Positions 21,461 through 61,076 of a stretch of 64,000 bases of DNA are shown piece after piece. Below the pieces are notes generated by a model. The model did not search any database and was not told where the DNA came from. It worked only from the letters and a program-made list of their open reading frames with translations. The stretch lies in assembly GCA_963779415.1 (NCBI GenBank), contig CAVZYA010000001.1:832001-896000 (forward strand). Reading direction: 5' to 3'. Source of the stretch: an uncultured Acidobacteriota bacterium. GTDB lineage: Bacteria; Acidobacteriota; Thermoanaerobaculia; UBA5066. Made by a program: the position numbers and the translations under genes. Position 1 is the first letter of the stretch. Every line of letters starts with the position of its first letter.

Positions 21461-21742
21461 CTACTTCTTCTTGCTCCGCCGGGCCGGGGCCGCCTTCGCC
21501 TTGAGATCGGCGATCTCGGCCTCGAGGAGGGCGAGACGGTGTTCGAGGCGGCCCACTTCCTTCCGCGTCGCGAGGTTCATCGTCTTGAGCACCTCCGCGA
21601 CCCGGCCGTCCACCTCTTCCTTGACGGCGACGCCTTTTTTCAGGACCTCGATGAAGGCCGGGTTCGCCATGAGGCGGTTCGAGATCTCGGTCAGAAACTC
21701 CTCGCCACGGGACTTGAGCTGGGAGAACAGCGCTTCGACCAT
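21461..21742 (-). CDS. Small phasin-like coiled-coil protein
   Basis: LKTMNLATRKEVGRLEHRLALLE resembles the phasin C-terminal motif; GGAGG RBS. Confidence 0.6.
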   Translation of the reverse strand: MVEALFSQLKSRGEEFLTEISNRLMANPAFIEVLKKGVAVKEEVDGRVAEVLKTMNLATRKEVGRLEHRLALLEAEIADLKAKAAPARRSKKK

Positions 21743-40776: not shown

Positions 40777-42369
40777 TCAGGAGACGAGGCGGAGCCGCGG
40801 CACTTCCCGCGGAACGGCGGGGGGGCGCGCGCGGAACCGCCCGAGTCGCAGGACGACCCTCTTGCCGAATACCCTTTCGAAAAGGTCGGCCTTCTCCCGG
40901 GCGGACCAGATCTCGAGATCGGCGGGGCCCCGAGCCGCCACCGTGACGACGACCTTCTTCCGCCGGATCTCGAGGCGGACGTCCATGACATGGCCGCGGT
41001 GCGTCCGGTCGAGTCCGTCAGCGAGCCGGAGGAGAGCCGAGAGCTTCTCGACGACCGGCTTCTTCCACGGATCGAGCCGCCGGAACGGCTGGTGCCTCTC
41101 CGAGGGGAGCGCTTTGCGGTGATAGCGGGCCACCTGCGCGATCACCTCCACCTCGTCGCGGGAGAACCCCTTCAGCCCGCCGTGGGCGATGAGGTAGTAC
41201 GAATGATGGTGGTGCCGCTGGTAGGCGATCGAGAGGCCGACGTCGTGGAGGAGCGCCGCGTGCTCCAGCCACTCGCGTTCGAGCGGCGTGAGCTGGTGGA
41301 GGCTGTGCGTCACGTCGAAGAGGCGGAGGGCGAGGTCGCGAACCCGCGCCGCGTGGCCGTTCACCCCTCCCGAGCGCTTCGCGAGCCTCTCGACGGAGGC
41401 GTGCCGGGCGTCCCGTTCGTCTCCCGGCCGCGAAGCCGAAGGCGACTCGAGGACGAGGCTGTCGCGCAGCGACCTCTCGGAGACCAGCAGGGTCCCGATT
41501 CCGAACGTCTCCATGATCTCGAGCAGAAGGATGCCCCCCGCGGTGATGATGTCGCGCCGCTCGGGCTCCAGCTCCTGGATCTTCGCTTTCTCCTTGAGCG
41601 TCGTCTTCCGGAGGAGCTTCACCGCCCTCGCGAGCTCCTCGCGGGTCACCGAGAGATGCCCGGCACCGTCCCGGACCCGTCCCCGGAGCGCGCGGGCGAT
41701 CCCGCCGAGCGCGAGGATCGTCCCGGAGGTGCCGACTGCCGTCCGGAACCGCGTCTTCCGGACCCGCTTCTTCAGCTTCCCGAGCCGGCTCCGGATCGTC
41801 CGGACGAGCTTCTCTTCGTCATTCTTCGAGAGAGGCGCGCTCCGGACGAAGCGCTCGGTCAGCCGGACGGCGCCGAGGTCGAGGCTCTCGGCCAGCTCGA
41901 GGGCGTCTCCGCTCGCAACCGCCACCTCCGTCGACCCGCCTCCGATGTCCACGACGAGAAGCGGATCGCACGAGGCCGGAAGGTCCAGCCGGACGGCGCG
42001 CATCGTCAGCCGCGCCTCCTCCTCCCCCGAGATGGCGACCGCCCGGATCCCCGTCTCCTTCCGGATCCGCCTCAGGAACTCGGGGCCGTTCTCCGCCTCG
42101 CGGACGGCGCAGGTGGCCACGGCCGTGATCCGTCCCGCCCCGGACGCGCGGGCCAGCGCCGCAAAGCGCTCCACGCAGTCGACCCCGTCGGCCATCGCCT
42201 CCTCCGAGAGGAGGCCGGTCGTCAACGTCTCCTGCGCCAGCCGGATCATCTCCTTCTCGCGCAGAATCTCGTCGTAATGATCGGGGTCTTCCGGGTCGAG
42301 GCGCGCCACGAGCAGCTTGATCGAGTTCGATCCGATGTCGATCGTGGCGACGGTGCGTGGGTCGGTCAT
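40777..42369 (-). CDS. ppx: Exopolyphosphatase Ppx/GppA with HD domain
   Basis: IDIGSNS, ATCAVREA, ISGEEEA, DIGGGSTE, LLHDVG, RLADGLD. Confidence 0.92.
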   Translation of the reverse strand: MTDPRTVATIDIGSNSIKLLVARLDPEDPDHYDEILREKEMIRLAQETLTTGLLSEEAMADGVDCVERFAALARASGAGRITAVATCAVREAENGPEFLRRIRKETGIRAVAISGEEEARLTMRAVRLDLPASCDPLLVVDIGGGSTEVAVASGDALELAESLDLGAVRLTERFVRSAPLSKNDEEKLVRTIRSRLGKLKKRVRKTRFRTAVGTSGTILALGGIARALRGRVRDGAGHLSVTREELARAVKLLRKTTLKEKAKIQELEPERRDIITAGGILLLEIMETFGIGTLLVSERSLRDSLVLESPSASRPGDERDARHASVERLAKRSGGVNGHAARVRDLALRLFDVTHSLHQLTPLEREWLEHAALLHDVGLSIAYQRHHHHSYYLIAHGGLKGFSRDEVEVIAQVARYHRKALPSERHQPFRRLDPWKKPVVEKLSALLRLADGLDRTHRGHVMDVRLEIRRKKVVVTVAARGPADLEIWSAREKADLFERVFGKRVVLRLGRFRARPPAVPREVPRLRLVS

Positions 42370-42404
42370 CGAAGCGGCTTTTATCGTACCGTCGTTCAGA
42401 CCGG

Positions 42405-43719
42405 ATGAAGATTTCTCCCTTCCCGTTTCCGGACCGCCCGCGCCTCTTCGGCGTCGCCGTCTCGCACTACCAGGTCGAGGGGAACGACCGCTGCGACTGG
42501 ACCGAGTGGGAGGCGGCCGGACGGACGCGAGGCGGCCCCTGCGGCCGTGCGGCCGGCTCGTGGGATCGATACGAGGAGGACGCGGTCCTGGCGGCCTCCC
42601 TCGGCGCGAATGCGTTTCGCTTCTCGGTCTCGTGGAGCCGTGTGGAGCCTCTCCGGGGAGCGTTCGACGTCCACGCGCTCGGCCGGTACCGCCGCTTCGT
42701 CGAGCGGCTCACCGCGCTCGGGATCGAGCCGGTCGTCACCCTCCTTCATTACACCCACCCGGCGTGGTTCCATCGTGAGACCCCCTGGACGTCGCCCGCT
42801 TCCGTCGGCGCGTTCGCCCGGTTCGCGCGAACCGTGGCCGACGCCCTCTCGCCGCACGTGAGGCTCTGGGCGGTCCTCAACGAGCCGCTCGTCCTCGTTC
42901 TCGGAGGCTTCCTGGACGGGCAGATCCCGCCGGGCATCGCCGACACGGGGTCCGCCCGCCGCGCGCTGGACCATCTCTTCGCCGCTCACGCCGAGGCGGC
43001 CGCCGCCATCCGCGAGGAGGCCCCCGGCTCCGCGATCGGAGTCGCTCACAACATGATGGGATTCGCGCCGGAGCGGAAAGGTCATCCGCTGGACCGGGTC
43101 GTCTCCCGTGCGGCGCACGACTTCTACAACCGGGGACTCCTCGAGGCCTTCGCGACGGGCCGGTGGAACCTCTGGCTTCCCCCCTTCAGCCGCCTCTCGG
43201 GACGGCGGGACGATCTCCCTTCCTCCCTCGACGTCATGGGGGTGAACTTCTATTCGCGGCTCCACCTCCGCGCTTCCGGACGGGGTCGCACGGGGGCCGA
43301 CTTCGCTTATCGGGACCGGACCGGGCGAGGGCTGACGGACAACGGGTGGGAGATCGTTCCGGAAGCAATCGGGCCTCTCCTCTCCGAGGCCGCGGCGCTC
43401 GGCAAGCCCCTCCTCGTCACCGAAAGCGGCCTCGCCGACGAGACCGACGCGAGGCGCGGCCTGTTTCTTCGCGAACACGTCGGGGCCGTCGTCGAGGCGG
43501 TCGCGCAAAGGGCTCCCCGTTCACGGCTTCTTCTACTGGTCTCTCGTCGACAACTACGAGTGGCTCGACGGCTTCGGCCCCAAGTTCGGCCTCTTTTCCG
43601 TCGACCCCCGGACGCTCGCGAGGCGGCCGAGGCCGTCGGCGGAGGTCTTCCGGCAGCTCAGCCGCGAGTTCCTGGCCTCCCCGTCCCCGGCCGATGCACA
43701 GAAATCTGTGCAGATTTAA
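42405..43719 (+). CDS. Glycoside hydrolase family 1; one extra base near 43503
   Basis: YQVEG, FRFSVSWSRVEP, NEP acid/base, VTESG nucleophile; YWSLVDNYEW..G..KFGL in the shifted frame. Confidence 0.88.
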
Positions 43720-43744
43720 CGGAATCCGAACAGCCCGTTCACGG
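43716..43744 (+). promoter_or_regulatory. Putative Pho box upstream of the PHP gene
   Basis: TTAACGG (43716), CGAACAG (43727), TTCACGG (43738) at an 11-bp period, resembling the repeats before pstS. Confidence 0.55.
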
Positions 43745-43790
43745 CGTTCTGTCGCCCGGAGCCCATCTTCCCGGGGCAGGAGGCGACACG

Positions 43791-44582
43791 ATGCTCCTGG
43801 CCGACTTCCACGTCCACTCCACCTGGTCCGACGGATCGCTTTCGATCCCCGAGGTGGTCGACCTGTTCGGGAAGTCCGGGCACGACGTCATCGCGATCAC
43901 GGATCACATCGTGAATTCCGACTCGTTCCTCGGCAAGGCCGCGCACCGCCTGAAGCTGAGCGTCACGCGCGAGAATTTCGACGCCTACCGTGCCGAGATC
44001 GACCGGGAGGCGCGGCGTGCCTGGGACCGCTACCGGATGATCGTCCTCGCCGGGTGCGAGCTGACCCGGAACGCGGCCACGGGCTCCCGCTCGGCGCACG
44101 CCCTCGCGATCGGGCTCGACCGGTTCGTCTCCGCGGACGGCCCGATGGAGGAAGTCCTCGTACGGGCCCGGGACGCCGGAGCCGTCACGGTCGCCTGTCA
44201 TCCTAACGAGCAGTCCGACTGGTTCGGGAACACTTTCTATCTCTGGAAGCGGCGCCGCGAGATCGGGGCCCTCGTCGACCGTTGGGAGCTGGCCTGCCGC
44301 TGGGACCTCTTCCCCCCCGTCGCGCGCGCCCGGCTCCCGTACGTCGCCAGCAGCGACTTTCACAAGCCGGCCCACCTCTGGGCCTGGAAGACGCTCCTCG
44401 CGTGCGACCGAAAGCCCGAAGCCGTCTTCGCCGCGCTTCGCTCCAACGCGGAGCTGGGCGCCACGAGGCTCCCGGCGCCACTCCGGCACGAGGTCCCTTC
44501 CGACGAGACGCCACACCGGCGGCTGCGATCTCTTTCCCGGCCTCACGGCGCCACAGCCCGCATGACGGGAGATGACAGATGA
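43791..44582 (+). CDS. PHP-domain phosphoesterase
   Basis: AGGAGG RBS; DFHVHSTWSDG, ITDH, GCE, CHP and SSDFH metal ligands. Confidence 0.87.
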   Translation: MLLADFHVHSTWSDGSLSIPEVVDLFGKSGHDVIAITDHIVNSDSFLGKAAHRLKLSVTRENFDAYRAEIDREARRAWDRYRMIVLAGCELTRNAATGSRSAHALAIGLDRFVSADGPMEEVLVRARDAGAVTVACHPNEQSDWFGNTFYLWKRRREIGALVDRWELACRWDLFPPVARARLPYVASSDFHKPAHLWAWKTLLACDRKPEAVFAALRSNAELGATRLPAPLRHEVPSDETPHRRLRSLSRPHGATARMTGDDR

Positions 44583-45795
44583 TCGTCTCCTCCTGCTCGT
44601 CTTCGCCAGCATCGGAGCCGTTCTGACCACCGTCCAGGTGCTCCTCGTCGCCCGTCTCCGGAGGCGCCGCCCCCTTTCGCGCCGGGCGGCCCCGGAGGAA
44701 GGGCCGCTTTCCGGCCGGCCGGTTCTTCGGCGGTCCCCCGCCTCTCCATCCTCAAGCCCCTCTCGGGTCTCGATGACGGGCTCGAGGAGAACCTCGGTTC
44801 GTTCGCGAACCTTCGGGGCATCCACTACGAAGTGATTTTCTCGGCCGCCCGGCCGGACGACCCGGCGGTGGAGGTCGCCCGGAGCGTGATGAGGCGCTTC
44901 CCCGCCGCGCCCCTGCGCCTCGTCGTCGGTGGGCCGGCGTTCGCCGGCGCCGTGAACCGGAAGGTGGAGCGGCTCGTCGCGGCCGCGCGCGAGGCTTCCG
45001 GCGAGATCCTCCTCGTCTCCGACTCGAACGTCCGGGTCTCCCCCGACGATGTCGCCGGGACACTCGCCCTCGTTCGACGACCGGCGTGTCGGCTGCGTCT
45101 CGAACCTCTTCGTCGGCGAGGGAGCGCGCTCCTTCGGTTCCGCCGTGGAATCGCTGCATCTCCTCACCTTCGTCGCCACGGGAACGGCCTTCGGCGAGGC
45201 CTCCGGAGTCCCCTGCGTCGTGGGAAAGTCGATGGCGATCTCCCGCGCCGCGCTCGAAGCGATCGGGGGCTTCCCGGCGTTTCTCGGACGTCCTCGCGCG
45301 AGGATCAGGCGATCGGCGTCGCCGTCCGGAAGGCAGGCTTCTTCGTCGTCGTCTCTCCCGTAGTCGTCCGGAACGTCACGATCAAGCGCTCTCTCGGAGC
45401 CGCTCTCGCCCGGCAGGTTCGCTGGAACAAGATCCGCTGGTCCTTCTCGAGATCCCTCTACACGGGCGAACTCCTCCTCAATCCCTTCCCCGTTTCCCTC
45501 CTCGCCTGCGGAGCGTCGGCGTTTTCCTCGCCCGCCATCCTTCCCGCCGCCGCCGTCTCCGCAGGCCTTCTTCTCCTTCTCCGAGTGGCGCAGGCAGCCG
45601 CCCTCGCGAAGCTCCTCGGCGCCGCCGTTCCGCTCGCGGCAGCTCGCGCTGATGCCCGTAAAGGACCTCCTCCAGTTCGGGGCCCAGTTCGTCCCGCTTC
45701 TCTCGCGCGAGGTCACGTGGCACGGGCACCGGGCACGGCTCGGGCCCGGGACGGTCCTCCTGCCGTCGCGCCGGAGCGCCGCGATCGCGGCCTGA
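44572..45795 (+). CDS. Ceramide glucosyltransferase/HpnI-like glycosyltransferase (GT21/GT2); about 5 frameshifts
   Basis: Stitched across frames: N-terminal TM, LSILKPLSGLDDGLEENL, NRKV, SDSNV, GKSMA, LAEDQ, RQVRW, VTWHG. Confidence 0.8.
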
Positions 45796-45899
45796 AGCCG
45801 ATCCGGGCGTGACCCGCCGGGCGGGGAGAAGGCGCGCCCGCGCGATCCGGAAGGGGTGAGATATCCTCCCGACGGACTTCAAACAGAGAGGTTCATGTA

Positions 45900-46520
45900 G
45901 TGAAGCTTCTGCCCCGCGAAGAGAACTTCCTTCCCCAGTTCAACCGGACGGCCGAGATCATCCTGGAGGCCGCGAAAGCCCTCGACGACATCGCGAACGA
46001 CTTCTCGGACGTCGAGGTGAAGGTCGCGAAGATCAAGCACCTCGAGCACGAGGGGGACCAGGTCACCCACCAGAGCTTCGCCCTGCTGTCGCGGACCTGG
46101 ATCACGCCGATCGACCGCGAGGACATTCACGACCTGACGAAGCAGCTGGACGACGTCCTCGACCTGCTCGACGCGGCCGCCGCACGACTCGTCCTGTTCA
46201 AGATCCCCGCCCCGACGCCCGAGCTGAAGGCCTTCACGAAGCTGCTCGTCCAGTCGGCCCAGGCCATCCAGCGGGCCATGGGTCTCTTGAGCGACCTGAA
46301 GAACTCGAGGGCGATCCTCGACGCCTGTATCGAGATCAACCGGCTGGAAAACGAGGGGGACACACTGAACCGGATGGCGATCAGCCGGCTCTTCGAGAAT
46401 GCGAAGGATCCCTTCACCCTCCTGAAGTGGAAGGAGATCTACGAGGTGCTCGAAACGGCGACCGACGCCTGCGAGGACGTGGCGAACGTCCTCGAGCAGA
46501 TCGTCCTCAAGTCGTCCTAG
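45900..46520 (+). CDS. DUF47 phosphate transport regulator (Pit accessory)
   Basis: LEHEGD, ITPIDREDI, LENEGD, LETATDACED. Confidence 0.9.
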   Translation: MKLLPREENFLPQFNRTAEIILEAAKALDDIANDFSDVEVKVAKIKHLEHEGDQVTHQSFALLSRTWITPIDREDIHDLTKQLDDVLDLLDAAAARLVLFKIPAPTPELKAFTKLLVQSAQAIQRAMGLLSDLKNSRAILDACIEINRLENEGDTLNRMAISRLFENAKDPFTLLKWKEIYEVLETATDACEDVANVLEQIVLKSS

Positions 46521-46526
46521 AGCGCC

Positions 46527-47540
46527 ATGGTCTTCGTCCTCCTCGTCGTCGTCATGGCCCTGGCCTTCGACTTCGTGAACGGTTTTCACGACGCCGCGAA
46601 CTCGATCGCCACCGTCGTCGGCACGCGCGTCCTCACGCCGCGGATCGCGGTGATCTGGGCCGCGTTCTTCAACTTCGTCGCCGCCTTCGCTTTCGAGACC
46701 CGCGTCGCCAACACGATCGGAAAGGACATCGTCGACCCGTCCATCGTCGACCCGGTGCTGATCCTCGCAGGCCTCCTCGGCGCCATCGTCTGGAATCTCC
46801 TGACGTGGTGGTGGGGCCTCCCGTCCTCGTCGTCGCACGCTCTCATCGGGGGCTTCGCCGGCGCGGCGGTGATGAAAGCGGGCGTCGGAGTGCTCATCCC
46901 GAGGGGCCTGGAGAAGACGGTCGTCTTCATCGTTCTTTCGCCGCTCCTCGGCATGGTCCTCGGCTTTCTCTTCTTCCTCTCCGTCATCTGGATCTTCCGG
47001 AGGACGCGGCCGGAGCCCGTGGACCGCCTCTTCCGAAAGGTCCAGCTCTTCTCCGCGGCCTCCTTCTCGTTCGGCCACGGCCTGAACGACGCGCAGAAGA
47101 CGATGGGGATCATCGCCGTGCTGCTCTTCTCGGCCGGTTATCTGCCACGCGTCATGATCCCCTTCTGGATCATCCTTCTCTGCCACGCCGCTATCGCACT
47201 CGGAACGCTGGCGGGCGGCTGGCGGATCGTCCGGACGATGGGAATGCGGATCACTCACCTGAAGCCCGTGGGGGGCTCGTGCGCCGAGTTTGCCGGCGCC
47301 TGCACCCTCTTCGGAGCTTCGTGGGCGGGGATCCCGGTCTCCACGACGCACACGATCACCGGGGCCATCATGGGCGTCGGGTCGGTCCAGCGCTTCTCGG
47401 CCGTCCGCTGGGGGATCGCACGGAACATCGTCGTCGCATGGATCCTGACGATTCCGGCGGCCGCCGCCGTGGGCGCTATTTCGTGGAAGGCTCTCGCCGC
47501 TCTGAACGGCCTCGTCGGTTTCTATCTCGTTCGCCCTTAG
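46527..47540 (+). CDS. pit: Inorganic phosphate transporter (Pit family)
   Basis: NGFHDAAN, GLPSSSSHAL, HGLNDAQK, GIPVSTTH. Confidence 0.93.
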   Translation: MVFVLLVVVMALAFDFVNGFHDAANSIATVVGTRVLTPRIAVIWAAFFNFVAAFAFETRVANTIGKDIVDPSIVDPVLILAGLLGAIVWNLLTWWWGLPSSSSHALIGGFAGAAVMKAGVGVLIPRGLEKTVVFIVLSPLLGMVLGFLFFLSVIWIFRRTRPEPVDRLFRKVQLFSAASFSFGHGLNDAQKTMGIIAVLLFSAGYLPRVMIPFWIILLCHAAIALGTLAGGWRIVRTMGMRITHLKPVGGSCAEFAGACTLFGASWAGIPVSTTHTITGAIMGVGSVQRFSAVRWGIARNIVVAWILTIPAAAAVGAISWKALAALNGLVGFYLVRP

Positions 47541-47552
47541 CGGATTCTCCTC

Positions 47553-47581
47553 TTTACACCGTCTTCACACGGGTCTCACGG
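47553..47581 (+). promoter_or_regulatory. Putative Pho box upstream of pstS
   Basis: TTTACAC (47553), TTCACAC (47564), CTCACGG (47575) at an 11-bp period. Confidence 0.7.
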
Positions 47582-47646
47582 AAACAACGCGACCGGCCCG
47601 GAGACTCGGCGCCGAAGCGATGAAACTTCAAGAGCAAGGAGGATTC

Positions 47647-48675
47647 ATGAGCAGCATGTGGAAAACGGCCCTGGCCGCGGCGGCGGCAGGGGTGCTTCTG
47701 GCCGGAAGCGCCTCGGCCCAGGTCAACCAGATCAACGGCGCCGGCGCCACCTTTCCCTTCCCGATCTACTCGAAGTGGTTCGACGTCTACGGCCATCTCC
47801 ATCCGGGCGTCCAGATCAACTACCAGTCGATCGGCTCCGGCGGCGGAATCCGCCAGCTCACGAACGAGACCGTCTTCTTCGGAGCGTCCGACGGCCCGAT
47901 GACGGACGAACAGCTCAAGTCCGCGCCCGGCCCCGTTCTTCACTTCCCGACCGTCCTCGGCGGCGTCGTCCCGGTCTACAACATTCCCGGGGTGACGGCC
48001 GACCTGAAATTCAACGGGAAAGTACTGGCGGACGTCTACCTCGGAAAGATCACGAAATGGAACGACCCGGCCATCACGGGCCTTAACCCCGGCGTCACGC
48101 TTCCGGGGACGGACATCGCGGTCGTCCACCGGTCGGACGGCTCCGGCACGACCTACATCTGGGTCGACTACCTCTCGAAGGTCTCCCCGGAGTTCAAGAA
48201 CAAGGTCGGCGTGTCGACTTCGGTCAACTGGCCGACCGGCGTCGGCGGCAAGGGAAACGAGGGAGTCGCCGGCCTCGTCAAGCAGACGCCCGGAGCGATC
48301 GGCTACGTCGAGCTGATCTACGCCATCCAGAACAAGATCAGCTACGGTGACGTGCAGAACCACGACGGGAAGTTCCTGCGCGCTACGCTTGCGACCGTCA
48401 CGGAGGCCGCCGCCGGAGCCGCCCGGGCCATGCCCGCCGATTTTCGCGTCTCGATCACGAATGCGCCGGGTGCCAACGCCTACCCGATCTCGTCCTTCAC
48501 CTGGATGCTCTTCTACGAGAACCCGAAGGACAAGGCGCGCGCCCGGATCATGGTCGACTTCTTCCGGTGGGCGCTCACGGACGGTCAGAAGTACTGCGCC
48601 GAGCTGGGCTATGCTCCGCTCCCCAAGGAGGTCGTGGCTCTGGAGATGGAGGCGCTGAAGAGGATCAAGCTCTGA
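47647..48675 (+). CDS. pstS: Phosphate ABC transporter substrate-binding protein
   Basis: GAGATFP, YQSIGSGGG, FGASD, RSDGSGTT, GKGNEGV. Confidence 0.96.
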   Translation: MSSMWKTALAAAAAGVLLAGSASAQVNQINGAGATFPFPIYSKWFDVYGHLHPGVQINYQSIGSGGGIRQLTNETVFFGASDGPMTDEQLKSAPGPVLHFPTVLGGVVPVYNIPGVTADLKFNGKVLADVYLGKITKWNDPAITGLNPGVTLPGTDIAVVHRSDGSGTTYIWVDYLSKVSPEFKNKVGVSTSVNWPTGVGGKGNEGVAGLVKQTPGAIGYVELIYAIQNKISYGDVQNHDGKFLRATLATVTEAAAGAARAMPADFRVSITNAPGANAYPISSFTWMLFYENPKDKARARIMVDFFRWALTDGQKYCAELGYAPLPKEVVALEMEALKRIKL

Positions 48676-48699
48676 GGACCTCCTCCGGGTAGCCTCTCG

Positions 48700-49671
48700 A
48701 TGACTGCCAGCCCGTCCCCTCGTCGGGGCGGCGAAGACCGCCTGTTCCGGCTGGGGACGGGTTTTTTCGCCTTCCTCGTCGCCCTCCTCGTGGCTGGAAT
48801 CGCTTTCGAGTTGTGGCGGGAGTCCCGCCTGTCGATCGAGAAGTTCGGCCTCGGCTTCTGGAAAACGAGCATCTGGGACCCGGTGGCCGGGAACTTTGGC
48901 GCTCTCCCGTTCATCTGGGGGACGCTCTACTCGTCGTTCCTGGCGCTCCTGATCGCAACGCCGGTGGCCCTCGGCATCGCCGTCTTTCTCTCCGAGCTGT
49001 CGCCCAGGTCCCTTCGGACTCCCCTGGCGTTCCTGACCGAGCTTCTCGCCGCGATCCCTTCGATCGTCTATGGCCTCTGGGGCGTCTTCGTTCTGGTGCC
49101 TCTGGTGAGGAAGCTGGAAGTCCTGACGCCCAACTGGATGCGAAAGCTCCCGCTCTTCTCGGGGCCGCCGCTCGGCGTCGGCATGCTCGCGGCGGCGCTC
49201 ATTCTCGCCGTCATGGTCATCCCCTTCACCTCGTCGGTGGCGCGCGAGGTTCTGAAGGCCGTTCCGGCCACGCAGCGCGAGGCGGCCTATGCCCTCGGGG
49301 CCACCCGCTGGGAGGCGATCCGCGTCGCGATGCGTTACGGGCGGACGGGGATCCTCGGGGCCGTCATCCTGGGTCTCGGGCGCGCCATCGGCGAGACGAT
49401 GGCCGTCACGATGGTGATCGGGAACAGCCCGACCGTTACCCCGTCGCTCTTCGCCCCCCAGTACACGATGGCCGCCGTCATCGCCAACGAGTTCACCGAG
49501 GCCGCGGACGACCTCTATCTCTCGGCTCTCGTCGAGATCGGCCTCGTCCTCTTCGCGATCACTCTGATCATCAACATCCTCTCCCGCCTTCTGATCTGGA
49601 GCGTGAACCGGGAGGTCCGGGTCGAGGAGCCGAAAGGCGCGGTCCGGGCGCCCGAGAGGGCCGCGGCATGA
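48700..49671 (+). CDS. pstC: Phosphate ABC transporter permease
   Basis: [33 protein letters not shown]. Confidence 0.95.
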
Positions 49672-50516
49672 ACCGGAACTCCCGCCGGAAGCTCCTCTCG
49701 AACTTCGTCGTCTTTCTCTGCGGAGCGTCCGTCGTCGTGGCGCTCGTTCCGCTCTGCTTCATCTTCCTCTACGTCATCCAGCAGGGGTTTTCGTCGCTGA
49801 GCTGGGATTTCTTCACGAAGATGCCGAAGCCGGTCGGCGAATCCGGCGGCGGCATGGCCAACGCCATCGTCGGGACGCTGATCCTGATCGGCCTCGCGTC
49901 ACTCCTCGCTGTCCCGGTCGGCCTGATCTCAGGCATCTACCTCTCGGAGTACCCGAAGTCGGGTCTGGCCTCCGCGGTCCGTTTCACGGCCGACGTCCTG
50001 AACGGCATCCCCTCGATCGTCATCGGTATCTTCGCCTACGGCCTCGCGGTCCTCCCGGTGAAGCACTTCAGCGCGCTGGCCGGCGGAATGGCGCTCGGAT
50101 TCATGATGGTCCCGATCATCACCCGGACGACCGAGGAGCTTCTGAACCTCGTGCCGCCCACCCTCCGCGAAGGGGCCCTCGCGCTCGGTGCGACCCGCGC
50201 CCGGGCCGCCTTCACGGTGATGCTCCCCGCGGCTTTGCCCGGCATCATGACCGGAATCCTCGTCTCGCTGGCCCGCATCGCCGGAGAGACCGCCCCGCTC
50301 CTCTTCACGGCGTTCTCGAACCGGTTCTGGTCCACGTCGCTGACGCAGCCGATTGCGTCGTTGACCGTTCAGATCTACACGTACGCCATCTCGCCCTACG
50401 ACGACTGGCACCGGCAGGCCTGGGCGGGGGCGTTCGTCCTCGTCGCCGTGGTCTTCATCTTCTCGGTTCTCTCCCGAGTCGTCACGAGACGGCTGGAAAG
50501 GATGCACCGGACATGA
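49668..50516 (+). CDS. pstA: Phosphate ABC transporter permease
   Basis: ATG 49668; [28 protein letters not shown]. Confidence 0.95.
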
Positions 50517-51373
50517 CGGAGACGGTCCTGACCCCCGGCGAGCCCAGTCCGGGAGGGCTCGCCGTGCCGGCGCCGGTGCCCGCGGAGCCGAGGCCCTCGC
50601 GGGGGCTGGAGTTCGGCACCCCGGTCCGGATGGAGGCCGGGCACATCGACTTCTGGTACGGGCGAAGCCAGGCTCTCTTCGACATCTCGATCCGGATTCC
50701 CGAGAGGTCCGTGACCGCGCTCATCGGACCGTCGGGCTGCGGAAAGTCGACGTTCCTCCGCTGCCTGAACCGGATGAACGACATCATCCCCGACACGCGG
50801 GTCGAGGGGAGCCTTTTGCTGGACGACAAGGACATCTACGGGGCCGGCATCGACATCGTCGACCTCAGGCGCCGGGTCGGCATGGTCTTCCAGAAATCGA
50901 ACCCCTTCCCGAAGTCGATCTTCGACAACGTCGCCTACGGCCTCCGGATCAACGGCTCGCCGAGCGCCTCGGAGCTGGCGGAGAGGGTCGAGCTGGCGCT
51001 CCAGCAGGCCGCTCTCTGGGACGAGGTGAAGGATCGACTCAAGACCTCCGCGCTCGGCCTCTCCGGGGGGCAGCAGCAGCGGCTCTGCATCGCGCGGGCC
51101 CTCGCTGTGGAGCCCGAGGTCCTTCTGATGGACGAGCCCTGCTCGGCTCTCGATCCGATCGCCACCTCCAAGGTGGAGGAGCTGATCTTCGACCTGAAGG
51201 AACGCTACACGATCGTCATCGTGACGCACAACATGCAGCAGGCGGCGCGGGTTTCGGACCAGACCGCCTTCTTCATGCTGGGAAAAATGATCGAGTACGA
51301 CAGGACGGATACCATCTTCACCAAGCCGACCATGAAGACGACCGAGGATTACATTACCGGGAGGTTTGGTTGA
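50513..51373 (+). CDS. pstB: Phosphate ABC transporter ATPase
   Basis: [38 protein letters not shown]. Confidence 0.97.
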
Positions 51374-52068
51374 CCGGAAAGAGCGCCGCTCCGCGCACCC
51401 GGATCGCCATCGTCGAGGACGACGACGATCTCGCCTTCACTCTCTCCTACAACCTGAAGAAGGACGGGAGGTACGAGGTGGAGCGGTTCGCCGGAGGCCT
51501 CGTCGCGCTCGACGCCCTGCTCGCGCACCCCCCCGACCTCGTCCTCCTCGACCTGAACCTCCCGGACGTGGACGGACTCACGATCTGCCGCGAGCTTCGA
51601 AAGGGGGAGGAGACGCGGAAGATTCCGATCCTGATGCTGACGGCACGCGTCGAGGAGCGGGACAAGCTTCTCGGCTTCGAGCTGGGGGCCGACGACTACG
51701 TCACGAAACCCTTCTCGATGAAGGAGCTGATGGCCCGGATCACGGCGCACCTCCGCCGCGCAAGTGCGACGGAGGCGGGCGAGGATCTCTGGGAGAACGG
51801 CCGGCTCCGGATCGACCGCGGCCGTCATCTCGTCCTCCGGGACGGCAGGCCCGTCCACCTGACAAAGAAGGAGTTCGATCTCCTCTGGCTTCTCATTCGG
51901 AGCGGGGGGCGTGTCGTGAGCCGCGAGACGATCCTTTCCCGGCTCTGGGACTACGCCGCCGACATCGAGACCCGCACGGTCGACGTCCACATCCGTTCGC
52001 TCCGGAAGAAGGTGGGCGAGGAGATGATCGAGACCGTCGTCGGGGTGGGCTACAGGTTCGCGAAATGA
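51370..52068 (+). CDS. phoB: OmpR/PhoB-family response regulator
   Basis: [34 protein letters not shown]; in the pst operon. Confidence 0.85.
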
Positions 52069-53885
52069 GCCGGCCCCTGAAACGATCGATCCTGCCGGTT
52101 CTCGCCGGGCTCGCCGTCGGAGGCGTCTTCGCGGTCCTTCTCGGCCGGGTCCTCGACGGCGCCGTCGCCGAGCGGACTCACCGCGACCTCGAGGGGCGGC
52201 TCGCCAACCTCTCCGAGGAGTTCGTGACCGATTTCCTCCCGGGGGCCCGTCCCGACGAGAAGGTCCGACTCTTCGCACGCGAGGCCGGGGCCCGGATCAC
52301 CCTCATCGCGCCAGACGGCCTCGTCCTCGCGGACAGCGAGGTGCCCCCGGAGAAGGTGCCGTCGATGGAGAATCACGGCGCCCGTCCCGAGATCGTCGAG
52401 GCGCGGCGCTCCGGACTGGGGTTCGACCAGCGCAGCTCGGCCACCGTCGGCATTCCGTTCGTCTACGTCGCGAGGCGCGTGGGAACCGAAGGCGCCCCCG
52501 TTGGCTTCGTCCGGCTCGCGATCAGCCGGCGGGTGCTCGATGCGCAGGAGGCGCCGTTCCGGGGGACGATCGAGAAGATCTCGCTGGGGGCGGGCGTCCT
52601 GGTGGCCCTCCTCTTCCTCGCCGTCCGCCAGCGTCATCGCCGCGAGCTCTCCCGCGTCATGTTGGGAATCGCGGATGCCGCCGAGGGGCGTTCGCCGCAT
52701 CTCCCTCAGGGAGCCTCCGAGGAGACGGAGGAGGTGATCCGGGCGCTCTCGAGGTTCGCCCGCCTCGTCGCCTCCCAGCGCGAGGGGAGCGAGAGGGCCC
52801 GCCTCCTTTCGCGGACCGTCTTCGAGCAGGTTCCCGTCGGCCTCATCGTCGTGGACGAGGCGCTCGACCTCCTCGACGCGAACCCGGCCGCCCTCGCGCT
52901 CTTCCGGGCGCCCGCCGGCATTCCGCGCCGGGCTCTCGTCGATCTCGTCCGGGAGACGGCCATCCTGAGGCTATTCGAAGCCGGAAGCGCAGCGGTGAAG
53001 GGGACGGCCCATGCGAGCGAGATCCTCCGCGTCGCCTCCGACGCGGTCCCCGAGCGGGTCCTCGAGGTGACCGTGCGGGCCCTCCCCCACGCCGAGAGGA
53101 GCGGCGAGCCGGCCGCGATCGGAGTCGTCCGGGACGTGACCGAGCACGAAAAGACCGAGGCGATGCGCCGCCGGTTCGTCTCGGACGTCTCCCACGAGCT
53201 GCGGACCCCGGTGGCCGCCATCCGGGCGGCGACCGAGACCCTGGCCGTCGAGGAGTCGCTCCCGCCCGACCTCGCCCGGCTTCTCGACATTCTCAAGCGG
53301 CAGTCGGCGCAGCTTCAGGACCTCGTCTCGGACCTGACCGATCTGTCGCAGATCGAGTCGGGGGCGGTGACGCTCGCCACGGAGGAGATTCCGGTGAGGA
53401 CGCTCCTCTCCGGGGTCGTCAACGACCTCGCGGCCTTCGCGGCCGCGCGGGGGGTCACGGTGGCGATCGAGGCCCCCGAGGAGCTTCTCGCCGCGGGGGA
53501 CCGGCGCCGGCTGGCCCAGGTCTTCCGGAACCTGATCGACAACGCCGTCAAGTTCTCCCCGGCCGGGAGCCGCGTGGACGTCCTCGCGGAACCGCTCGCC
53601 GCTGCCGCGGGAGGGCTGCGCCGCGTCGTCGTCCACGTCATCGACCGTGGCATCGGAATCCCGCGGGCCGAGCTCGACAACATCTTCCAGCGCTTCTACC
53701 GGGTCGACCCCTCGCGGGCGAAGTCCGTTCCCGGAACGGGGCTCGGGCTCGCCATCGTCAAGCACCTTCTCATCCTTCACCGCGGGTCGATCGCGGTCGA
53801 TTCGGAGCTTGGCAAGGGGAGCCGTTTCAGCGTGACCCTTCCTGCCGCGGCGCCTTCTAAGGCGGCCGCCCTGGAGACGAAATGA
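52065..53885 (+). CDS. phoR: Phosphate regulon sensor kinase
   Basis: Two TMs, MENHGARPEI, FVSDVSHELRTP, NLIDNAVKF, GTGLGLAIVKH. Confidence 0.88.
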   Translation: MSRPLKRSILPVLAGLAVGGVFAVLLGRVLDGAVAERTHRDLEGRLANLSEEFVTDFLPGARPDEKVRLFAREAGARITLIAPDGLVLADSEVPPEKVPSMENHGARPEIVEARRSGLGFDQRSSATVGIPFVYVARRVGTEGAPVGFVRLAISRRVLDAQEAPFRGTIEKISLGAGVLVALLFLAVRQRHRRELSRVMLGIADAAEGRSPHLPQGASEETEEVIRALSRFARLVASQREGSERARLLSRTVFEQVPVGLIVVDEALDLLDANPAALALFRAPAGIPRRALVDLVRETAILRLFEAGSAAVKGTAHASEILRVASDAVPERVLEVTVRALPHAERSGEPAAIGVVRDVTEHEKTEAMRRRFVSDVSHELRTPVAAIRAATETLAVEESLPPDLARLLDILKRQSAQLQDLVSDLTDLSQIESGAVTLATEEIPVRTLLSGVVNDLAAFAAARGVTVAIEAPEELLAAGDRRRLAQVFRNLIDNAVKFSPAGSRVDVLAEPLAAAAGGLRRVVVHVIDRGIGIPRAELDNIFQRFYRVDPSRAKSVPGTGLGLAIVKHLLILHRGSIAVDSELGKGSRFSVTLPAAAPSKAAALETK

Positions 53886-54565
53886 AAGAGCACTTCTCCG
53901 AACTCCTCGAGAACCTCCGCCGCCAGCTGATCGGGATGGGCGCCGAGGTCGAGAACCAGATCCGCCTCGCCATGGACGCCCTCGTGGAGGCCGACGCCGT
54001 GAAGGCCCGCCGGGTCATCGAGCACGACCGGACGATCGACGAGCTGGAAGTGAAGAACGAGGACGACACGATCCACCTCCTCGCCACGCAGCAGCCCGTC
54101 GCGAGCGACCTGCGGCTTCTCGTCGCCGGCCTGAAGATCAACTCCGATCTCGAGCGGATCGGCGACCACGCCGTCAACATCGCGGAGGCCGCCGAGCGGA
54201 TGTCCCACGTCCGGCCGTTCAAGCCCTGGATCGACATCCCCTACATGGCCGAGATCGCCCGCGGGATGTTGCGCGACTCGCTCGACGCCTTCGTGAGGCG
54301 TGACTCGGGCCTCGCCCTCGAGGTCTGCCGGCGGGACGACCTCCTCGACGAGAAGAACAAGTCTCTCATCCGGGAGCTCCTGACCTACATGGCCGAGAAC
54401 CCCGCCCTCATCTCGGCGTCGATCGAGATCATGGGGATCTCGAAGAACCTCGAGCGCGTCGGCGACCTCTCGACGAACATCGCCGAGGAGACGATCTTCA
54501 TCGCCGAGGGCCAGAACATCAAGCACGTCTTCAAGACCCAGCCGCCGGGCTCCAATCCCGCCTGA
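53882..54565 (+). CDS. phoU: Phosphate signalling protein PhoU
   Basis: QQPVASDLR, DLERIGDHAVNIAE, LERVGDLSTNIAE. Confidence 0.96.
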   Translation: MKEHFSELLENLRRQLIGMGAEVENQIRLAMDALVEADAVKARRVIEHDRTIDELEVKNEDDTIHLLATQQPVASDLRLLVAGLKINSDLERIGDHAVNIAEAAERMSHVRPFKPWIDIPYMAEIARGMLRDSLDAFVRRDSGLALEVCRRDDLLDEKNKSLIRELLTYMAENPALISASIEIMGISKNLERVGDLSTNIAEETIFIAEGQNIKHVFKTQPPGSNPA

Positions 54566-58426: not shown

Positions 58427-59275
58427 TCAGAGCGCGGAGCCTTCCGGCAGGACGAGATTGTCCAGAAGCCGGGTCGATCCGAACCGGACGGCCATCGAGA
58501 CGAGCACCCGGCCGGCCGCCGTCTCGATCTCGACGAGCGTCTCCGGATCGGCCGCCGAGACGTAGTCCACGGACGCGAGCGGCTCGGCGGCGAGAATCGC
58601 GAGCGCGGGCTCGCGGAGCCGCGGGCCGCGGCGTTCGCCCGCGAGCCACGCCGCCGAGACGGCCCGAAGGGAGCGGTAGAGGACCGGCGCCGCCCGCCGC
58701 TCTTCCGGGGTGAGATAGGCGTTCCGGCTGCTCATCGCGAGGCCGTCCGGCTCGCGGACGATCGGGCAGACGACGATCTCGACGGGGAGGTCGAGGTCGG
58801 CGGCCATTCTCCGGATGATCACCGCCTGCTGGGCGTCCTTCTGGCCGAAGTAGGCCCGGTCCGGCTCGATCACGTGCAGGAGCTTCGACACGACGGTCAG
58901 GACGCCGCGAAAGTGTCCCGGACGGCGCTCCCCTTCGAGCGTCCCGGCAAGCGCGCCCGGAACGACCCATGTCTGAAAGCCCGGCGGAAAGACGGACGCC
59001 GCCTCCGGCGCGAAGACGAGGTCGACCCCTTCCGCCTCGAGAAGCGCGAGATCTCCCTCGAGGTTCCGCGGGTACTTCGCGAGATCCTCCTGCGGGCCGA
59101 ACTGCGTCGGGTTGACGAAGATGCTCGCGAGGGCGGCGTCGCTCTCGGCGCGCGAGCGCCGGACGAGCGACAGGTGCCCGTCGTGCAGCGCTCCCATCGT
59201 CGGGACGAATCCGACCCGGCCCCGAAGTCCGCGCCGGAGGCGCCGCGCCTCGCGGGAGTCCGTGACGACCTTCAT
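58427..59275 (-). CDS. panC: Pantoate--beta-alanine ligase
   Basis: FVPTMGALHDGH, SIFVNPTQF, RPGHF, FGQKDAQQ, GLAMSSRN, RLLDN. Confidence 0.96.
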   Translation of the reverse strand: MKVVTDSREARRLRRGLRGRVGFVPTMGALHDGHLSLVRRSRAESDAALASIFVNPTQFGPQEDLAKYPRNLEGDLALLEAEGVDLVFAPEAASVFPPGFQTWVVPGALAGTLEGERRPGHFRGVLTVVSKLLHVIEPDRAYFGQKDAQQAVIIRRMAADLDLPVEIVVCPIVREPDGLAMSSRNAYLTPEERRAAPVLYRSLRAVSAAWLAGERRGPRLREPALAILAAEPLASVDYVSAADPETLVEIETAAGRVLVSMAVRFGSTRLLDNLVLPEGSAL

Positions 59276-60170
59276 GCCGCACCCTTCTCGTCCAGCGCGC
59301 GGACCGCGAGCCAGAGGCTCTCGTTCACCGGCGCCGGGACACCGAGCCGCCGGGCCTTCGCGACGACCGCGCCGTTGATCGCGTCCACTTCCGTCGGGGC
59401 TCCACGCCGGACGTCCTGGAGCATCGACGAGACGTTTCCGGCCGTCGCGAGGGCCACGCGCCGTGCCGCCTCCCCGGGATCGCCAGCCGGAAGCTCGATC
59501 CCGGCCGCCGCCGCCGTCGCGACGACCTCCCGGGCCGCGGAATCGAGAAGGGCCACGGCGGACGGGCGGCGCAGGATCTCGCCGTTGGCGACGTCGAGCA
59601 GCGCCGTCAGCGGAAGAAGAGGCGCCGTGACCGAGAGCTTCTCCCAGACGAGGCGATTCGCATCCGGAACGATCGAGACCTCGAAGCCCGCCCGCGAGAG
59701 AAGCTCCTCGACGCGCGCGGCCTTCGGATGGGCGGCGAGAGAGATCCGCCTCCCTCCGCCGGAGCGGGCGTGCCCGGGCGACACGAGCGTCGCGCCGACC
59801 TCGGCCGCTCCCGTCACGACACGCTCCGGACCGAGCGCGGCGCCGAGCGTCTCGGAATTTCCCGAGGCCGTTCTGAAGGGTCACGGCGACGCCGTCCTTC
59901 TCGAGAAACGACCGGATCGCTTCGGCGGCCCGCCCCGTCGCCCCCGCCTTCACGAGGACGAAGGCGATCCGCGCGCCACGGCATTCCTCCGGAGAGACGG
60001 TGGCCGCCACTGATGCGGAGAACGTCCCGTCTTCGGAGTCGAGGGTCGCGCCGTGGAGACGAAAGCTCCGGATCGCCTCGGCCCACGTCCCGAGAAGGGT
60101 GACGGGGACGAGCGCCGCCGAGCCGGGCGGCGAAGAGCGTCGCCAGAGCGCCGGTCCCGACGACCGTCAC
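59272..60170 (-). CDS. panE: 2-dehydropantoate 2-reductase; frameshifts near 60110 and 59858
   Basis: [38 protein letters not shown] across three frames. Confidence 0.85.
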
Positions 60171-61076
60171 CAAGCAACCGGCTCCTTCCGCTTCGCCGTG
60201 CGAAGAGGGTTCTCCTCGAGGTCGCGCCGGAGCTTCTCCCACTCCTCGTCCGGAATCGGGTAGGTGTGCTCTGGCCCCGGAAATCGCCGATCGAGGACCT
60301 CTCGCCGGTAGGTCTCGAGAGCTTTCTGCGCCTCCTCCAAGAGGCTCGCGTAGCGCTTCACGAAGCGCGGCGCGAGGCTGTCCTGGAGCCCGAGGAGATC
60401 GTGGAAGACGAGCACCTGTCCGTCGCATGCCGACCCCGAGCCGATGCCGATCGTCGGAATCCGGAGGTTCCTCGAGAGGAGCGCCGCCACGCGGTCCGGG
60501 ACCGCCTCCAGAACGAGGGAGAAACAGCCGGCCTCTTCGAGAAGCAACGCGTCCTCGAGGAGCTTCCGGGCCGCCGGAGCCGTCCCCCCCTGCGCGCGGT
60601 ACCCGCCGAGGGCGCGGATCGACTGAGGCTGAAGGCCGATGTGCCCCATGACGGGAATCCCGGCCTCCACGAGGGCCCGGACGGTCGCCGAGCGCTCGCG
60701 TCCCCCCCTCCAGCTTCACGGCGTCCATTCCGCCTTCGGCCAGGAAACGCCCCGCGTTGCGGATCGCCTCTTCGACCGAGACCTGATAGGTAAGAAACGG
60801 CAGGTCGCCCACCCGGAGCGCCCGGCTCTTCGCGCGCGCCACGGCCCGGGCGTGGTGGAGCATTTCGTCCAACGTCACCGAGAGCGTGTCCTCGTAGCCG
60901 AGGACGACCATGCCGAGCGAATCGCCCACGAGAAGGACGTCGATCCCGGCCCGGTCCCCGGCGAGGGCGGACGGGTAATCGTAGGCCGTGACCATCGTGA
61001 CCGGCTCGCCGCGCGCCTTTCGTGCGAGGAGGCTCTGCGGCGTGACGCGGGAGCGGGCGGGAGAAGGGGTACTCAT
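60167..61076 (-). CDS. panB: 3-methyl-2-oxobutanoate hydroxymethyltransferase; extra base in the homopolymer at about 60702-60708
   Basis: [21 protein letters not shown], then [21 protein letters not shown] in the shifted frame. Confidence 0.93.

Follow-up and report, generated by a model that had tools for sequence, protein, structure and literature searches.

The window, which is the whole 64-kb stretch of DNA analyzed here, carries at 42405–45795 on the plus strand three co-oriented, tightly spaced genes encoding a GH1 beta-glycosidase (PF00232, 147.8 bits), a PHP-fold phosphoesterase (PF02811) and a GT21-type membrane glycosyltransferase that PF13506 matches in pieces. This arrangement had been described in a first-pass annotation, together with a position of the cassette between ppx on one side and DUF47-pit-pstSCAB-phoBR-phoU on the other, and both are borne out by the Pfam matches. 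The exopolyphosphatase gene ppx (40777–42369, minus strand) is a single ORF of 530 aa that matches Ppx-GppA with 200.7 bits and additionally domain III and HD, and it is divergent from GH1 with the two start codons 35 nt apart. On the other side follow, all on the plus strand, DUF47 (PhoU_div; 45900–46520; PF01865, 104.4 bits) and pit (PHO4; 46527–47540; PF01384, 331.1 bits), and, as placed by Pfam matches and frame tracking, pstS (47620–48675), pstC (48700–49671), pstA (about 49668–50516), pstB (50513–51373), phoB (51370–52068), phoR (about 52065–53885) and phoU (53882–54565). A scan of 42000–47800 for sigma-70 promoters and terminators gave 0 promoter-like and 2 terminator-like sites in total, fewer than in shuffled sequences, and no site of either type in the cassette.

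The GH1 gene (42405–43719, plus strand) matches positions 10–395 of its Pfam profile, ends with a TAA stop at 43717–43719 and encodes a protein without a signal peptide. Members of this family have a TIM barrel with an acid/base glutamate in the motif NEP and a nucleophilic glutamate in (T/I)E(N/S)G. The protein has both catalytic motifs, as LNEP and TESG, which pair with FNEP and TENG in the alignment to the solved structure 1vff, and this places it in GH1. The C-terminal 50 residues lie in the next frame (NCBIfam profile 376–427), and the score for the BGL equivalog TIGR03356 is split over two frames (188.8 and 48.6 bits) and falls short of 478.5 bits; none of the three proteins of the cassette matches an NCBIfam model above its cut-off. 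The closest solved relative is 1vff, which we take to be BGPh, the GH1 beta-glycosidase of Pyrococcus horikoshii, with a narrow lead over the next PDB match in the window (E 2.5e-45 vs. 2.3e-43) and a wide one for the intact GH1 of a related locus, L004 (E 3.5e-80 vs. 7e-66). BGPh is reported to be membrane-associated with a preference for long-alkyl glucosides, and its relatives to hydrolyze steryl glucosides (PMC4687101). The cassette GH1 is thus likely related to a membrane-associated beta-glycosidase favoring long-chain aglycones, which would fit a lipid glycoside as its substrate, although BGPh itself is archaeal and is not known to be connected with either phosphate or a glycolipid synthase. 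A perfect 7-nt inverted repeat, TGCACAG-AAAT-CTGTGCA, is located at the 3' end of GH1 (43695–43712, plus strand).

The second gene (43791–44582 as sequenced, plus strand) is preceded by the ribosome binding site GGAGG at 43779–43783. The PHP superfamily is characterized by an N-terminal HxH motif and further His/Asp/Glu ligands of a trinuclear metal site; the protein belongs to it with a PF02811 score of 26.8 bits (cut-off 26.4), profile positions 1–64 alone being matched. More specifically, it falls into the family of Thermotoga maritima TM0559 (PDB 2ANU; E 6.5e-46, residues 2–223 against 20–239 of the chain) with all metal-binding motifs aligned, and the nine metal ligands H7, H9, D14, H39, E90, H103, H137, D189, and H191 are invariant or at least 90% conserved in 25 sequences. 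TM0559 was deposited as a 'hypothetical protein' without an assigned function. The 976 relatives reach a top identity of 87%, and a search of the ESM Atlas returned just PHP clusters that are named 'hypothetical' or carry generic automatic names. The substrates best known for PHP enzymes are nucleotides, histidinol phosphate, phosphotyrosine, and cyclic phosphates rather than lipids. A Metallophos (calcineurin-like) match is absent from the protein in Pfam, which places it outside the PlcP family, and its resemblance to PlcP is one of functional analogy rather than of membership. The overlap of the PHP and GT genes seen in the first-pass annotation holds for the ORF as sequenced, which ends at 44582, 11 nt into the GT gene starting at 44572, but the frame that matches the homologues stops at 44563–44565 and leaves a spacer of 6 nt. 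A predicted complex of PHP (A1, residues 1–238) with GT21 (A3) scored 0.01, which we count neither way. A second PHP gene at L004 was set aside, as it lies on the opposite strand and encodes an ordinary histidinol phosphatase (304.6 bits vs. 202).

The GT21 gene (44572–45795, plus strand; stop TGA at 45793–45795) is present as six in-frame pieces and is of the ceramide-glucosyltransferase/HpnI-like fold type. This family combines a GT-A domain and motifs including a (Q/R)xxRW region with flanking transmembrane helices. PF13506 matches in two frames with 48.5 and 42.1 bits and is found in the intact relatives too, and the pieces retain SDSN, AED, and RQVRW (RxxRW), motifs that are invariant in 25 GT21 homologues. 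Over 395 aligned residues they are 84.8% identical to an intact homologue of 404 aa (P0121), whose nearest solved structure is a ceramide glucosyltransferase (E 9.5e-27). Although HpnI (TIGR03472 equivalog) is the top NCBIfam model, the pieces score 110.2 and 35.1 bits against its cut-off of 310, and intact relatives remain below it as well (197.7 bits for P0121 and 250.1 bits for the protein of L009).

The gene-neighborhood search proposed in the first-pass annotation covered 52 loci with a PHP match at E ≤ 3e-27, out of 79 fetched, and was positive. PHP with GT21, in part with GH1, is conserved in Acidobacteriota, Nitrospirota, Myxococcota/Thermodesulfobacteriota, and Bdellovibrionota and repeatedly adjoins pst, pho, ppx, or ppk genes, and this conserved linkage rules out a chance adjacency of GH1, PHP, and GT21. 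A glycosyltransferase gene lies next to PHP in 41 of the 52 loci, 17 with GT21, 13 with GT28 and 11 with a GT2 of approximately 245 aa, while the remaining 11 loci are without an adjacent one, so that members of the PHP family can occur uncoupled. A GH1 gene is present at 14 of the 17 GT21 loci, at one of the 13 GT28 loci and at none of the 11 GT2 loci. Two further partners lend independent support to the glycolipid remodeling suggested in the first-pass annotation: in Verrucomicrobiota the family is fused to a GT28 that resembles diglucosyl-diacylglycerol synthase, and in Vicinamibacterales it is paired with the small GT2. Of these, 12 of the 13 GT28 loci encode GT28-PHP as one continuous ORF of 660–770 aa, and MGDG-synthase/GT28 domains precede PHP in 9 of 24 scanned proteins, representatives chosen by length or rank. 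At scores below the cut-off (121–166 vs. 500 bits), the best match of the GT28 part is 'diglucosyl diacylglycerol synthase', and the small GT2 shows weak similarity to glucosyl-3-phosphoglycerate synthase, far below the cut-off (E 2e-7 to 5e-6). Two proteins, P0242 and P0274, look like PHP-GT21 fusions but are incomplete in both domains and were not counted as such. The partner type maps cleanly onto a 50-row PHP tree, in which GT28 and GT2 each make up a single starred clade, and all labels take 6 changes against a mean of 27.4 after shuffling (0 of 200 shuffles as low). Phosphate markers (PstS/C, PstB at ≥50% identity, PhoU, Pit, DUF47, Ppx, Ppk1, PhoX, alkaline phosphatase, and PsiE) occur within the fetched flanks of at least 21 of the 52 loci, many of these loci being short contigs. 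Further genes for phosphorus-free lipids are found close by, namely an OlsF-like aminolipid synthase directly after GT21 in the Nitrospirota loci L008 and L009 and OlsB-like genes at L010, L019, L028, L029, and L037. A PAP2 lipid phosphatase gene is present at L002 and L003 and could be the diacylglycerol-forming step there, in which case PHP would have another role.

A Pho-box-like triple direct repeat with an 11-bp period is located upstream of pstS (47553–47581, plus strand; TTTACAC cgtc TTCACAC gggt CTCACGG). Its first two units, TTTACACCGTCTTCACAC at 47553–47570, match TTYACAC-N4-TTYACAC exactly and the third follows, so that the periodic repeat reported earlier at pstS is real, and it is the sole match with 0 mismatches in 64 kb. 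A similar repeat had been claimed before PHP, and this stands in part. The degenerate repeat found there (43715–43744, plus strand; TTAACGG-N4-CGAACAG-N4-TTCACGG), 47–76 nt before the ATG, lines up with far better-formed boxes that occupy this position in the related loci L001, L003, L004, and L005, but is itself unmatched at ≤3 mismatches. The best dimer within 150 nt upstream of PHP has 4 mismatches, which is no better than chance, compared to 6 upstream of GH1 and 0 upstream of pstS; in this window the Pho box in front of PHP lacks significance, and the dimer search gave none before GH1. Across the loci, TTYACA-N5-TTYACA dimers with ≤1 mismatch occur ≤250 nt upstream of module genes at 6 of 52, a number reached by 0 of 179 composition-matched permuted hexamers (mean 0.84, maximum 5). 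When ≤2 mismatches were allowed in the 150 nt upstream, coding-strand dimers were found at 11 of 51 loci vs. 2.1% of random 150-nt segments, a control that contains coding DNA and therefore somewhat overstates the enrichment.

As sequenced, the cassette contains seven single-base frame breaks, one in GH1, one in the tail of PHP, and five in the GT gene. The indels of the latter, noticed before, are confirmed by tblastn against P0121 as five frame changes near 44667, 45069, 45286, 45299, and 45633. Newly recognized are the break in GH1 near 43504 and one that takes the last approximately 20 codons of PHP out of frame from about 44509, with a homologous C-terminus in the next frame. We regard these breaks as more likely sequencing or assembly errors than true decay, because at least four other genes of the window are broken and because one base is added in 10 of 11 window frame breaks (one-sided binomial about 0.006). 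The other broken genes include the housekeeping genes panB, panE, and probably rimI with the same kind of break, and natural bacterial indels lean towards deletions. Were the breaks real mutations, GH1 and GT21 would be pseudogenes and the module non-functional in this organism, which we consider unlikely, even though the concentration of the breaks speaks for it: 7 of about 11–12 frame breaks in 64 kb fall within the 3.4 kb of the cassette vs. 4–5 in the other approximately 60 kb, a density approximately 20-fold that elsewhere in the window, GC content accounts neither for their position nor for their excess, and the Pho-box-like repeat in front of PHP is more degenerate than those at the same position in the four loci named above. 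Against decay, in-frame stops and large deletions are absent from the genes and no motif is lost, and the GT pieces are 70–85% identical to intact homologues at a PHP identity of 87%, a divergence no greater than among intact orthologues (GT 66–71% at PHP 82–86%; proteins paired as presumed to be of the same contig). Similar split genes occur at other MAG loci of the set, e.g., L004. The CTCG/CGAG context of four GT insertions was rejected as their cause, since this tetramer starts at 3% of positions and the link is a weak, post hoc one.

A major way in which microbes respond to scarce phosphate is to replace phospholipids by lipids free of phosphorus, and to our knowledge the first step of this replacement is known essentially only via PlcP. 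In Sinorhizobium, SAR11, Roseobacter, and Pseudomonas, PlcP and a downstream glycosyltransferase, Agt, are reported to form an operon-like pair that belongs to the Pho regulon and converts phospholipids to glycosyl-diacylglycerols, so that a phosphoesterase gene adjoins a glycolipid glycosyltransferase gene as in the cassette (PMC4796936; PMC8231724). PlcP is a Mn metallophosphoesterase of the calcineurin-like type and Agt a retaining GT4 enzyme, whereas the cassette combines a PHP-fold protein, with phosphoesterase as its predicted role, with GT21, GT28, or GT2 and has GH1 attached. The GT21 enzymes Pgt are reported to make glycosyl-diacylglycerols, including di- and triglycosyl forms, with a role during phosphate deprivation in Mesorhizobium (M. 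loti) (PMC8231724). Pgt of M. loti and Agrobacterium tumefaciens shares the GT21 family with the cassette enzyme and is set alongside it by description only. Pgt is not known to have a PHP or GH1 partner, and a literature search on PHP/TM0559 found none. Plants respond to phosphate starvation with the phosphoesterases NPC/PAH, type-B MGDG synthases (GT28), and the GH1 galactolipid transgalactosidase SFR2. There, too, a GT28 enzyme glycosylates phospholipid-derived diacylglycerol and a GH1 protein remodels glycolipid head groups, but the phosphoesterases are unrelated proteins and the system is eukaryotic and separately encoded.

By analogy to PlcP-Agt, we lean towards reading GH1-PHP-GT21 as a conserved Pho-linked cassette that would swap phospholipids for phosphorus-free glycolipids under phosphate scarcity. 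For the PHP enzyme, the acceptor of the GT, and the 'reverse' step ascribed to GH1 in the first-pass annotation, we infer the following roles. The soluble TM0559-type PHP may cleave the phosphate-bearing head group off a glycerophospholipid, or the phosphate off phosphatidate, which would free phosphorus and leave diacylglycerol. The polytopic GT21, judged by its family, would move a hexose from a nucleotide sugar to diacylglycerol to give a beta-glycosyl lipid and is possibly processive like Pgt, and the cytoplasmic GH1 might trim, recycle or transglycosylate the beta-glycolipid head groups. Co-expression of a synthase and a hydrolase for one linkage would, however, be futile unless they are regulated apart.

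The order of the two central steps might also be reversed, with the GT glycosylating a phosphorylated acceptor and PHP then stripping the phosphate, the product being perhaps a glycoside or an unusual glycolipid instead of a phospholipid replacement. In trehalose-, sucrose-, and glucosylglycerate-phosphate synthase/phosphatase pairs the GT acts first and the phosphatase second, fusions of this logic are classical, the GT28-PHP domain order follows it, and the small GT2 resembles, weakly, glucosyl-3-phosphoglycerate synthase. We nevertheless consider a reversed order improbable, as the GT21 and GT28 partners are membrane-lipid enzymes by their best matches (ceramide glucosyltransferase and diglucosyl-diacylglycerol synthase), families that are not known to accept a phosphorylated lipid carrying a free hydroxyl, and as OlsF and the Pho context suit lipid replacement. 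Even less probable is the absence of a shared pathway, with PHP as a phosphate-scavenging phosphatase or nuclease of the Pho regulon (e.g., for pAp, UDP, or RNA ends) and GT21 as an HpnI-like hopanoid or ceramide GT. The weak NCBIfam matches of the PHP N-terminus are indeed nucleotide-acting PHP enzymes, and some relatives bear the source labels '3',5'-nucleoside bisphosphate phosphatase' or 'ceramide glucosyltransferase', but these matches span only the HxH region (residues 2–54) and are far below cut-offs. HpnI being the best model of GT21 is offset by the shortfall of the intact homologue (197.7 vs. 310), and Pfam scans of the window ORFs gave no hopanoid (hpn) or sphingolipid genes. Moreover, the covalent fusion with GT28 and the pairing with three GT families in five or more phyla are hard to explain without a shared pathway.

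In agreement with the first-pass annotation, which knew of no description of this combination, the literature search found none, nor a paper tying TM0559 or PHP proteins to lipid remodeling, and none of the papers it found to mention TM0559 is on lipids as judged by titles and abstracts. A study of phosphate limitation in D. alaskensis names agt and olsF, while the terms PHP, phosphoesterase, and phospholipase do not occur in it, and the single mention of PHP in the lipocone paper concerns a different neighborhood. Returning to the phospholipid-replacing cassette, we tentatively propose, at somewhat less than even confidence, that TM0559-type PHP proteins are widespread, unrecognized lipid phosphoesterases of phosphate starvation in Acidobacteriota, Nitrospirota, Verrucomicrobiota, Myxococcota/Thermodesulfobacteriota, and Bdellovibrionota, which would replace PlcP non-homologously and feed diacylglycerol to the GT21, fused GT28 or GT2 of the respective lineage, the GT21 version adding a dedicated GH1 lipid beta-glycosidase or transglycosidase. 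If PHP does this lipid job, the solved protein 2ANU would gain a role, and lipid remodeling would reach abundant, hard-to-culture phyla of soil and freshwater as well as gut-associated ones. PHP beside or fused with a glycolipid synthase would then be a simple metagenome marker of phosphorus stress, and the GH1 partner would indicate an active turnover or elongation of bacterial beta-glycolipids.

In the window, which has a G+C content of about 69% and whose genes find their best protein matches among sequences labelled Thermoanaerobaculia (Acidobacteriota), three plus-strand genes lie between the divergent exopolyphosphatase gene ppx (40777-42369, minus strand) on one side and DUF47-pit-pstS-pstC-pstA-pstB-phoB-phoR-phoU (45900-54565, plus strand) on the other. 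They encode a family-1 glycoside hydrolase (GH1; 42405-43719), a phosphoesterase with a PHP fold (ATG at 43791, preceded by GGAGG) and a GT21-type membrane glycosyltransferase (ATG at 44572, TGA at 45793-45795), and the coordinates and identities assigned to this cassette in the first-pass annotation were correct. Elsewhere in the window, a lipid- and storage-related neighbourhood (15992-21576) holds PhaR, phasin and two epimerase/dehydratase genes, together with a patatin-like phospholipase gene at about 17.2-18.4 kb and an acyltransferase gene at about 19.4-19.8 kb (minus strand); a CDP-alcohol phosphatidyltransferase gene is found at 6787-7857.

The PHP protein has 976 relatives in a 90%-clustered collection, the best being 87% identical, and 915 in a 50%-clustered library at E <= 0.001, 80 of them at <= 1e-30. 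The one relative with a solved structure, 2ANU (E 6.5e-46), is TM0559 from Thermotoga maritima, deposited as a 'hypothetical protein'; no NCBIfam model matched at cut-off, and matches to nucleotide-acting PHP enzymes were confined to the HxH region. Conservation extends to all nine residues that an active PHP enzyme is expected to use as metal ligands. When 24 library representatives, picked by length or rank, were scanned for domains, nine carried an MGDG-synthase/GT28 domain N-terminal of PHP and one a fusion with a response regulator and histidine kinase. The library protein P0289 (646 aa) joins a PHP-family domain N-terminally to a response-regulator receiver and histidine kinase, a hint that the role of some family members is in sensing or signalling and not in lipid remodelling.

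The neighbourhood check proposed with the first-pass annotation was carried out on one genome per species with 10-kb flanks and gave 79 loci (numbered with the prefix L), 52 of which contain clear PHP family members (E <= 3e-27). GT21 lies downstream of PHP in 17 of the 52, from Thermoanaerobaculia and other Acidobacteriota, Nitrospirota, deltaproteobacteria labelled Myxococcota or Thermodesulfobacteriota, and one Bdellovibrionales locus. In 13 loci, mostly of Verrucomicrobiota, GT28 precedes PHP, 12 of them having a single continuous ORF of 660-770 aa, and in 11 further loci, all Acidobacteriota (mainly Vicinamibacteria), a GT2 of about 245 aa stands ahead of PHP, its end lying 21-27 nt from the start of the PHP match in 9/11. 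No adjoining glycosyltransferase was found in the remaining 11/52, which come from Bdellovibrionota, Chlorobiaceae, a spirochaete, Patescibacteria, a nanoarchaeon and Thiomargarita. PHP is followed in Chlorobiaceae by a gene (L041:1303-2535 and L044:1146-2216) for a protein of 357-411 aa that gave no Pfam match in either locus and no NCBIfam match in L041; it is possibly an unrecognised PHP partner.

On a maximum-likelihood tree of PHP (50 rows; L048, L051 and L052, whose PHP match is split or short, were omitted), the GT28 set and the GT2 set each form one well-supported clade, and the partner labels require 6 changes compared with 27.4 when shuffled. Two GT28-PHP fusions nested within the Verrucomicrobiota clade, L014 (labelled Bifidobacteriaceae) and L028 (labelled Klebsiella), stem probably from mis-binned contigs. 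Each partner family includes lipid glycosyltransferases, because the nearest model of the GT28 part is 'diglucosyl diacylglycerol synthase' (below cut-off), the nearest structures of GT21 are those of ceramide glucosyltransferase, and GT21 Pgt enzymes are described as producing glycosyl-diacylglycerols (PMC8231724).

Specific phosphate-metabolism genes occur inside the fetched flanks of 21/52 PHP loci, where a rough guess would put a random gene at a few per cent. The cassette is preceded directly by ppx-phoU and followed by pstSC in L004 and L005, pstSCAB-phoU comes immediately after GT21 in L048, pstS is divergent from GH1 in L002 and ppk1 follows GT21 in L003; PhoX (L034) and alkaline phosphatase (L030) stand beside GT2-PHP pairs, and PsiE is nearby in L007 and L009. 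TTYACAC-type dimers are commoner upstream of cassette genes than in controls: with <=1 mismatch and <=250 nt upstream they occur in 6/52 loci, a count reached by 0/179 permuted-hexamer controls, and with <=2 mismatches in 11/51 loci versus 2.1% of random segments. Their placement recurs too: in GT21-type loci they stand 60-100 nt ahead of PHP, and where GT28 and PHP are fused they lie about 30-40 nt upstream of the fusion gene. The 11-bp repeat reported earlier ahead of PHP in the window held up only in part: the pstS promoter region does carry an exact triple TTYACAC repeat with this period, but the site before PHP (43715-43744) is degenerate and not significant. Just ahead of this Pho-box-like site, at the GH1 end, lies a perfect inverted repeat (TGCACAG-AAAT-CTGTGCA, 43695-43712), and L003 carries TTCACAAGAAATCTACA at the matching place.

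GH1 is present in 14/17 GT21 loci, 1/13 GT28 loci and none of the 11 GT2 loci; the window's protein lacks a signal peptide and retains both catalytic glutamates. Its closest solved relative is 1vff, which we take to be the P. horikoshii GH1 enzyme, and since that enzyme favours long alkyl glucosides, a lipid beta-glycoside would be a plausible substrate by analogy, whether for hydrolysis, recycling or transglycosylation. The P. horikoshii enzyme is described as membrane-associated and favouring long-alkyl-chain glucosides, while relatives cleave steryl glucosides (PMC4687101).

Further lipid genes adjoin the cassette in other genomes. In the Nitrospirota loci L008 (6623-8470) and L009 (6545-8395), GT21 is directly followed by an OlsF-like bifunctional acyltransferase (aminolipid synthase) matching at 395 bits where the cut-off is 620, so that each is a combined locus for glycolipid and aminolipid; five further loci have OlsB-like genes in the vicinity of PHP. 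Ornithine-type lipids, like glycolipids, are phosphorus-free substitutes (PMC5193443; PMC12971839). Genes for PAP2 lipid phosphatases adjoin the cassette in two Thermoanaerobaculia loci, L002 (6284-6790) and L003 (3678-4262, minus strand), and a MIP/aquaglyceroporin gene (3162-3929) lies between GH1 and PHP in L002.

As sequenced, none of the three window genes is contained in a single frame. The GH1 frame shifts near 43504, its final ~50 residues, a conserved C-terminal block, lying in the next frame; the catalytic domain of PHP is intact, and the protein's C-terminal tail, from about 44509 on, fits homologues only when read in the next frame. Because this homologous frame stops at 44563-44565, the 11-nt PHP/GT overlap noted in the first-pass annotation exists as sequenced but is a by-product of the break. 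The GT indels mentioned there are confirmed in the sequence as it stands, amounting to five frame changes relative to intact 404-aa homologues: a C lost from a C-run near 44667, and a single extra G or C each at about 45069, 45286, 45299 and 45633. A CTCG/CGAG tetramer, which starts at 3% of positions, accompanies all four insertions, a post hoc observation that could reflect motif-linked base-calling error. Outside the cassette, Pfam together with a Viterbi frame tracker based on codon usage located breaks at 59275-61050 (minus strand), about 6496 (plus) and about 33847 (plus): in panB, profile positions 1-118 and 115-258 fall in different frames, the N and C domains of panE do not share a frame, and breaks are probable in rimI and between the Ser/Thr kinase and FGE-sulfatase domains of a further gene.

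Whether the window's copy has truly decayed has to be weighed against sequencing or assembly error. Decay would fit the packing of 7 of about 11 breaks into 3.4 of 64 kb, for which GC content does not account. By frame arithmetic, however, one base is added in 10/11 breaks and in every one outside the cassette, which suggests an error-prone assembly; the GT pieces keep every family motif at 70-85% identity to intact homologues, and GT divergence relative to PHP is not above that among intact orthologues. Error is thus favoured, because housekeeping genes are broken too, insertions dominate and other signs of decay are absent, and we regard it as distinctly the likelier explanation, a substantial minority chance being left to decay.

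By analogy with the PlcP-Agt operon, the simplest account would be a Pho-linked cassette turning phospholipid into glycolipid, the same logic as that of PlcP-Agt (PMC8231724), from which it would differ in that the proposed phosphoesterase, PHP, is non-homologous. PHP is predicted to make a phospholipase C-like or phosphatidate phosphatase-like cut, before or after the glycosyltransferase step, which GT21 would perform and for which GT28 or GT2 would substitute in other lineages, GH1 being an accessory particular to the GT21 version. Alternatives keep some weight, since PAP2 is present in two loci. Among the rival readings, besides true decay of this copy, glycosyl transfer might come before a phosphatase, or PHP might merely scavenge phosphate beside an HpnI-like glycosyltransferase, against which stands the failure of the intact GT homologue to reach the HpnI cut-off.

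In main-text literature with few subscription papers, nothing was found that connects PHP proteins of the TM0559 type with lipid remodelling or with glycolipid synthases. Phosphate-starvation lipid remodelling as such is well known; the PHP family as the proposed enzyme of its first step, the GT28-PHP fusions and the pairing with GH1 seem not to have been described before.
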